Positions 57,330 to 57,347 of a DNA stretch of 64,000 nucleotides are shown here, one piece after another (positions within the stretch are counted from its first letter, which is position 1; each line of letters opens with the position of its first letter). The DNA comes from Escherichia coli. GTDB taxonomy: Bacteria > Pseudomonadota > Gammaproteobacteria > Enterobacterales > Enterobacteriaceae. The notes beneath the pieces are model-generated. The model made no database searches. It was not told the origin of the DNA and was given only the letters and a program-made list of their open reading frames with translations. The position numbers and the translations under genes were made by a program. The stretch lies in assembly GCF_030013205.1 (NCBI RefSeq), contig NZ_CP122648.1; one strand, written 5' to 3'.

Positions 57330-57347
57330 CCTCAAGTTAACTTGAGG
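57330..57347. promoter_or_regulatory. SoxR operator (perfect 18-bp palindrome) in soxS promoter
   Basis: CCTCAAGTTAACTTGAGG lies between divergent soxR and soxS starts. Confidence 0.85.

Follow-up and report, generated by a model that had tools for sequence, protein, structure and literature searches.

A perfect palindrome in the short region between the divergently transcribed genes soxR and soxS raises the question of which protein it serves and which of the two genes it controls. In the 64,000-nucleotide stretch of Escherichia coli DNA that was analyzed here (the window), this palindrome, CCTCAAGTTAACTTGAGG, spans 18 bp at positions 57330-57347. Its two arms of 9 nt each are 100% complementary with zero gap between them, and the coordinates and the perfect symmetry given in a preliminary description of this DNA were thereby confirmed. 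The evidence presented below leaves us nearly certain that the palindrome is the single operator for a SoxR homodimer in the bidirectional soxS/soxR promoter. This operator is a real and functional textbook element that has already been fully described. Our contribution is a precise coordinate map together with a quantified conservation record, for which the sequence and position of the site, the promoter hexamers and their spacing, the identity of the genes, uniqueness and conservation were determined directly; the element itself is not new. It is from this operator that the E. coli response to superoxide and redox-cycling drugs is governed. At this one site SoxR turns on soxS, and thereby ~100 genes including efflux and antioxidant functions, and its own synthesis is held down. 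The operator of PsoxS, the soxS promoter, also serves as a standard example of how MerR-type regulators activate by distorting DNA, and redox biosensors make wide use of it.

The palindrome and its neighboring genes

The palindrome is flanked by soxR (56854-57318, minus strand, 154 aa), which matched the SoxR equivalog TIGR01950 with 247.6 bits at a cutoff of 116.9, and by soxS (57404-57727, plus strand, 107 aa), which matched the SoxS equivalog NF007584 with 228 bits at a cutoff of 174. The product of soxS is an AraC-family activator and soxS is the target gene of the promoter; the plus-strand motif AGAGG (57392-57396) was read from the sequence as its likely ribosome-binding site. The gene that adjoins the palindrome and diverges from soxS encodes SoxR, a MerR-family [2Fe-2S] redox sensor, and carries the CX2CXCX5C motif in the form C119-X2-C122-X-C124-X5-C130 (residues 119-130), in which Cys119/122/124/130 are the known ligands of the cluster (PMC9909328). 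All 154 residues of the protein could be aligned with the chain in PDB entries 2zhg and 2zhh (SoxR-DNA crystal entries), with 2 substitutions, T38S and G74R, relative to the K-12 protein and 2zhg. We take both of these to be polymorphisms reported in clinical isolates, and the SoxR-DNA crystal structure 2ZHG was reportedly the work of Watanabe et al. 2008.

The soxR-soxS stretch was 100% identical to that of E. coli K_EC180, in which the RefSeq gene order is ghxP, soxR, soxS and pdeC. Apart from two indels, the entire window is collinear with this genome, with an offset of 1 before ~30.7 kb and of 30 after ~60.2 kb, and on the basis of this collinearity the RefSeq annotation of K_EC180 was borrowed for the window. 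At the 3' end of soxR, the terminator scan reported a terminator-like hairpin (56830-56860) that overlaps the soxR stop codon. A plus-strand match to the sRNA SraL/RyjA (Rfam RF01408, 153 bits) spans 56721-56861. This sRNA converges on soxR, with an overlap of 8 nt at the soxR stop codon, and the matched SraL 3' end covers this hairpin.

The intergenic gap between soxR and soxS (57319-57403) measured 85 bp, as had been stated before. The palindrome is not centred in this gap, contrary to the preliminary description, since its dyad axis falls between 57338 and 57339 and the gap midpoint is 57361, with distances of 11 bp to the soxR ATG and 56 bp to the soxS ATG.

It could be argued that a palindrome of this size arose by chance and has no function of its own. 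The expected number of perfect palindromes of at least 18 bp in 64 kb is ~0.24, and its length alone does not make the palindrome significant, because 26 of 100 mononucleotide shuffles of the window also yielded a perfect palindrome of at least 18 bp and a longer one of 20 bp is found in the coding sequence of fdhF. For the 85-bp gap, an arithmetic estimate of the expected number of such palindromes is ~3e-4, and the specific 18-mer would be expected 0.03 times in the window with up to 3 mismatches allowed. The significance of the palindrome rests on its identity, its position in a short divergent intergenic region and its conservation, and in the light of these a chance origin is exceedingly improbable.

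With respect to identity, the E. coli SoxR box is quoted as 5'-CCTCAAGTTAACTTGAGG, citing Hidalgo et al. 1998 (PMC4411124), and the palindrome of the window is letter-identical to this published operator. This bears out the earlier identification of the palindrome as the SoxR operator and argues against a chance palindrome. The fit to the 18-mer (general form CCTCRA-N6-TYGAGG) at 57330-57347 is free of mismatches, and no second SoxR box was found in the window with either the full box at up to 3 mismatches or CCTCAA-N6-TTGAGG at up to 2 mismatches. Beyond the box itself, a published primer that contains the K-12 soxS promoter (PMC4234026) agreed with the window at all 88 nt of 57319-57406. The 18-mer, the 88 nt from the soxR start codon through the soxS start codon, the -35 and -10 hexamers with the 19 bp between them and the divergent arrangement of the genes are common to this strain and K-12, with no DNA difference; the SoxR protein, in contrast, differs by the two substitutions given above. 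The primary footprint and spacing work on the K-12 SoxR box in PsoxS is said to be that of Hidalgo and Demple 1994 and 1997 and of Hidalgo et al. 1998.

Promoter anatomy and the action of SoxR

The hexamers of both promoters were assigned by direct reading and cross-species alignment. In the soxS direction, the directly read -35 TTTACC (57326-57331, plus strand) and the -10 TATACT (57351-57356, plus strand) are separated by a spacer of 19 bp (57332-57350), which is 2 bp over the 17-bp optimum, and a -35 placed 17 or 18 bp away would have only 1 or 3 of 6 consensus matches. The first two bases of the palindrome (CC) are also the last two of the -35, and the other 16 of the 18 bp fall within the spacer, where they occupy 16 of the 19 positions. 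The earlier statement that the palindrome is embedded in the over-long spacer of the soxS promoter thus holds for the length of the spacer and for these 16 bp, but not for the 2 bp that are part of the -35. A SoxR box is expected to be located in a sigma-70 promoter with 19 bp between -35 and -10 and to overlap the -35, and the palindrome has this layout. According to PMC4411124, SoxR boxes usually occupy a 19-bp spacer between -35 and -10, and from a single site one gene is activated and soxR autorepressed.

In the soxR direction, a perfect -10 TATAAT was read directly on the minus strand at 57349-57354 (ATTATA on the plus strand). It overlaps the soxS -10 by 4 bp, and these overlapping opposite-strand hexamers (57351-57356 on the plus and 57354-57349 on the minus strand) are in agreement with a study that treats PsoxS/soxR as bidirectional, with one -10 region common to both directions (PMC12825309, 2026). 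A weak candidate for the soxR -35 is TCGTTA (57372-57377, minus strand), which has a 17-bp spacing to the -10 and 3 of 6 consensus matches and is located in a stretch that is not conserved across enterics. A consensus promoter scan that considered spacers of 16-18 bp only, with at least 4 of 6 matches per hexamer, reported neither the soxS nor the soxR promoter, the former being missed because its 19-bp spacer exceeds the allowed range and the latter because its -35 is weak. When start sites are placed according to the hexamer positions, soxR transcription is predicted to begin at ~57342, about 7 nt past TATAAT and within the palindrome, and the divergent soxS and soxR starts would be ~20 bp apart. 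With the 4-bp overlap of its TATACT (+) and TATAAT (-), the locus resembles the shared -10 promoters described by Warman et al. 2026, whose starts are 10-23 bp apart, a range into which the predicted distance at soxS/soxR fits (PMC12825309). It differs from this class in that the opposite transcript is repressed through direct occlusion by the regulator and not through RNA polymerase competition (PMC12825309).

This occlusion is a second role of the operator that the earlier reading had omitted: the same site covers the soxR start and represses soxR. In PMC6612552, the SoxR site of PsoxS is located in the interval from -10 to -35 and, with respect to PsoxR, downstream of the -10; SoxR occupies it in either redox state and through it represses its own gene. 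Divergent PsoxS/soxR transcripts have been shown in vitro, and the 19-bp spacing exists in the soxS direction only (PMC12825309). According to the same study, SoxR activates soxS and directly blocks the soxR transcript even with soxS activation disabled, a block that the authors explain by the soxR start site being occluded together with part of the soxR -10. One complete SoxR site is needed for binding and its mutation abolishes the SoxR gel shift (PMC12825309), which is a further argument against a palindrome without function.

SoxR binding, distortion, activation and autorepression would carry over to this locus from the literature on the identical sequence. A SoxR homodimer would bind the half-sites CCTCAA and TTGAGG with its [2Fe-2S] clusters reduced or oxidised. 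In the soxS direction, TTTACC and TATACT would be too distant and, because they are 19 bp apart, out of phase for sigma-70, until oxidised or nitrosylated SoxR kinks and under-twists the dyad centre, which would realign the hexamers and turn soxS on (MerR-type activation by distortion). In the soxR direction, transcription from the minus-strand TATAAT that overlaps the soxS -10 would start within the palindrome, so that SoxR bound in either redox state would block its own transcription. A review describes how the kink and under-twist at the dyad centre realign hexamers 19 bp apart (PMC9909328), the distortion mechanism was observed by cryo-EM for relatives (PMC8113463), and structures have established distortion for SoxR, CueR, BmrR and EcmrR (PMC9909328, PMC8113463). 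By which route the redox change in SoxR reaches the DNA-binding domain has still to be determined according to PMC9909328. MerR/PmerT, CueR/PcopA, ZntR/PzntA, BmrR/Pbmr and EcmrR likewise feature a dyad site between -35 and -10 with an over-long spacer (19-20 bp). MerR-type operators are likewise activated by kinking and under-twisting of the spacer with the regulator staying bound (PMC8113463, PMC9909328); for the locus analyzed here, the spacing of 19 bp and the position of the dyad were confirmed. Unlike these relatives, which sense a metal or a drug, SoxR has its [2Fe-2S] cluster's redox state as the signal.

A palindrome at this position could in principle also act through nucleic-acid structure, as a cruciform, an intrinsic terminator or an mRNA-leader hairpin, and the single-stranded DNA does fold to a 7-bp hairpin of -5.8 kcal/mol with a z-score of -3.6. 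Such a fold, however, follows from any palindrome. There is no T-run after the palindrome, the terminator scan gave nothing at this site, the palindrome is located upstream of the predicted soxS start, and only about half of it would be part of the soxR leader if transcription starts ~7 nt past TATAAT. Moreover, distant loci keep the outer half-sites and vary in the central 6 bp, which is the pattern of a dimer site and not of a stem. A structural role is accordingly very hard to credit, and the hairpin/terminator reading was rejected on the grounds that there is neither a T-run nor a terminator call and that half-site sequence rather than pairing is conserved.

Just past the soxS -10, the sequence CCCCAA (57357-57362) is one base off the half-site CCTCAA. 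Judging from its coordinates, it is probably the "partial SoxR site" predicted by Seo et al., a half-site that proved irrelevant for binding (PMC12825309).

Conservation of the SoxR box

For the conservation of the SoxR operator, 80 loci were fetched via the SoxR protein with one genome per species, a sampling that is independent of the palindrome. All 44 loci with a divergent soxS, which belong to the Enterobacteriaceae and Erwiniaceae and encode SoxR proteins 66-99% identical to the query, carried the identical 18-mer, and the conservation across Enterobacteriaceae that had been proposed as a check was thus evident. In an ungapped, box-anchored comparison of the 44 distinct sequences, positions 57325-57349 and 57351-57356, the soxS -10 included, were invariant, position 57350 varied once (L034) and both flanks diverged, so that the SoxR box stands out as a phylogenetic footprint. 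The conserved block of 32 bp (57325-57356) runs from the -35 through the -10, and in soxS-bearing bacteria 31 of these 32 bp are frozen across two families, including the central six bases. The invariance of the 18-mer between diverging flanks speaks against a chance palindrome, as does the recurrence of the same architecture beside soxR in Pseudomonas, Rhizobium, Sphingomonas and others described below, and it is this conservation pattern that excludes it.

Why the enteric block is frozen throughout may be explained by several functions that are packed into it, namely the soxS -35 and -10, the half-sites and a deformable centre, together with the soxR -10 and start on the opposite strand and possibly a ribosome-binding site for soxR, an explanation that we put forward as a rather doubtful one. 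The last of these functions would be provided by GAGG of the soxR-proximal arm (minus strand), which is located 11 nt before the soxR ATG and possibly serves as the soxR ribosome-binding site. Within E. coli, a 38-bp core was 100% identical and single-copy in 5397 of the 5426 complete genomes, and a 121-bp probe was at least 99% identical in 5418 genome records.

A box is located just upstream of soxR in 35 of the 36 loci that lack an adjacent soxS, including those of Pseudomonas, Rhizobium, Agrobacterium, Sphingomonas, Serratia and others. The box was within ~30 bp of the estimated soxR start in 33 of these 35 loci, with distances of 58 bp in L075 and 117 bp in L056; in the remaining locus, L074, no box was present in the 400 bp searched. 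The 31 distinct non-enteric boxes largely kept the outer CCTCAA/TTGAGG and varied in the central six bases. All 31 have a -35 that overlaps the box by 2 bp (TTGACC in 27, TTGATC in 2 and TTTACC in 2), and most have a TAnnnT-like -10 19 bp downstream; the -35/box offset was conserved across 75 loci. Symmetric double changes were found in several of these boxes, with G-C replaced by C-G at positions 7/12 in 6 and A-T replaced by T-A at positions 5/14 in 2 and at positions 6/13 in 2. Symmetric changes together with largely kept outer half-sites are the hallmark of a site that a symmetric dimer recognizes.

Non-enteric SoxR boxes, known from Pseudomonas, Stenotrophomonas (mfsA) and Streptomyces with the general form CCTCRA-N6-TYGAGG, have the same outer half-sites, 19-bp spacer and -35 overlap as the operator of the window. 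They differ in their variable central 6 bp and in a mostly stronger -35 (TTGACC), whereas the enteric box is fixed throughout, and they drive effector genes directly without SoxS as an intermediate.

The association of the box with soxR also bears on the possibility that the palindrome is mainly the site of another regulator, for example for autorepression by SoxS or for another MerR-family protein. The sites of SoxS and MarA are asymmetric 20-bp marboxes and not perfect palindromes, which sets them apart from the palindrome found here, and over the 35 non-enteric loci the box travels with soxR and not with soxS. A soxS-like gene beside the box was found in 0 of these 35 loci, and a weak AraC-family match elsewhere in the locus was present in L067 only. 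SoxS does modestly repress both transcripts in vitro, but the SoxR gel shift is lost once the complete site is mutated (PMC12825309). A site that belongs primarily to a regulator other than SoxR thus has next to no likelihood.

Natural variants and other features of the window

Two E. coli genomes exhibited a disrupted soxR-soxS region. In strain E138 (NZ_AP022351.1; locus L082, 2199-3061), an IS1X4 element is inserted in the intergenic region at the equivalent of window positions 57344-57352, with a 9-bp target duplication (GAGGAATTA). An intact SoxR box and the -35 remain on the soxR side, and the -10 TATACT and soxS are located ~0.8 kb away beyond the IS element. In E138, which is a clinical isolate, this arrangement should abolish or rewire the control of soxS by SoxR. 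In strain MS 69-1 (NZ_CP146675.1; locus L083, 2995-3106), a deletion that extends from inside ghxP to inside soxS has taken out soxR and the operator together with the 5' part of soxS, and what remains of ghxP and soxS is annotated as two pseudogenes.

Other features were observed elsewhere in the window. In the ssb gene (60125-60631, minus strand), 30 bp between 14-bp direct repeats (CCGCCCTGCGGCTG) are deleted in frame, with the junction at ~60227-60241. The encoded SSB has 168 aa versus the usual 178 aa and lacks 10 residues of the Gly/Gln/Pro-rich disordered linker, and of the 5426 complete E. coli genomes only 1, that of ETEC4079 (NZ_CP122643.1), had this deletion junction. At ~30728, a G-run of G5 compared with G4 in K_EC180 (1 bp) is part of the GC-rich hairpin-like sequence TTTTGGGGGCCCTTAAGCCCCCAA just downstream of yjcS. 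Matches to Rfam families included STnc630 (3004-3169, minus strand), which overlaps the pmrR/pmrB 3' region, and naRNA4 (9613-9690, plus strand), a REP-type element between yjdM and yjdN. The above-mentioned 20 bp within fdhF (CGTTATTGGTACCAATAACG, 36336-36355), which form the longest perfect palindrome of the window, encode the residues VIGTNN and are located 15 nt ahead of the selenocysteine insertion element (Rfam SECIS_2, 36371-36425).
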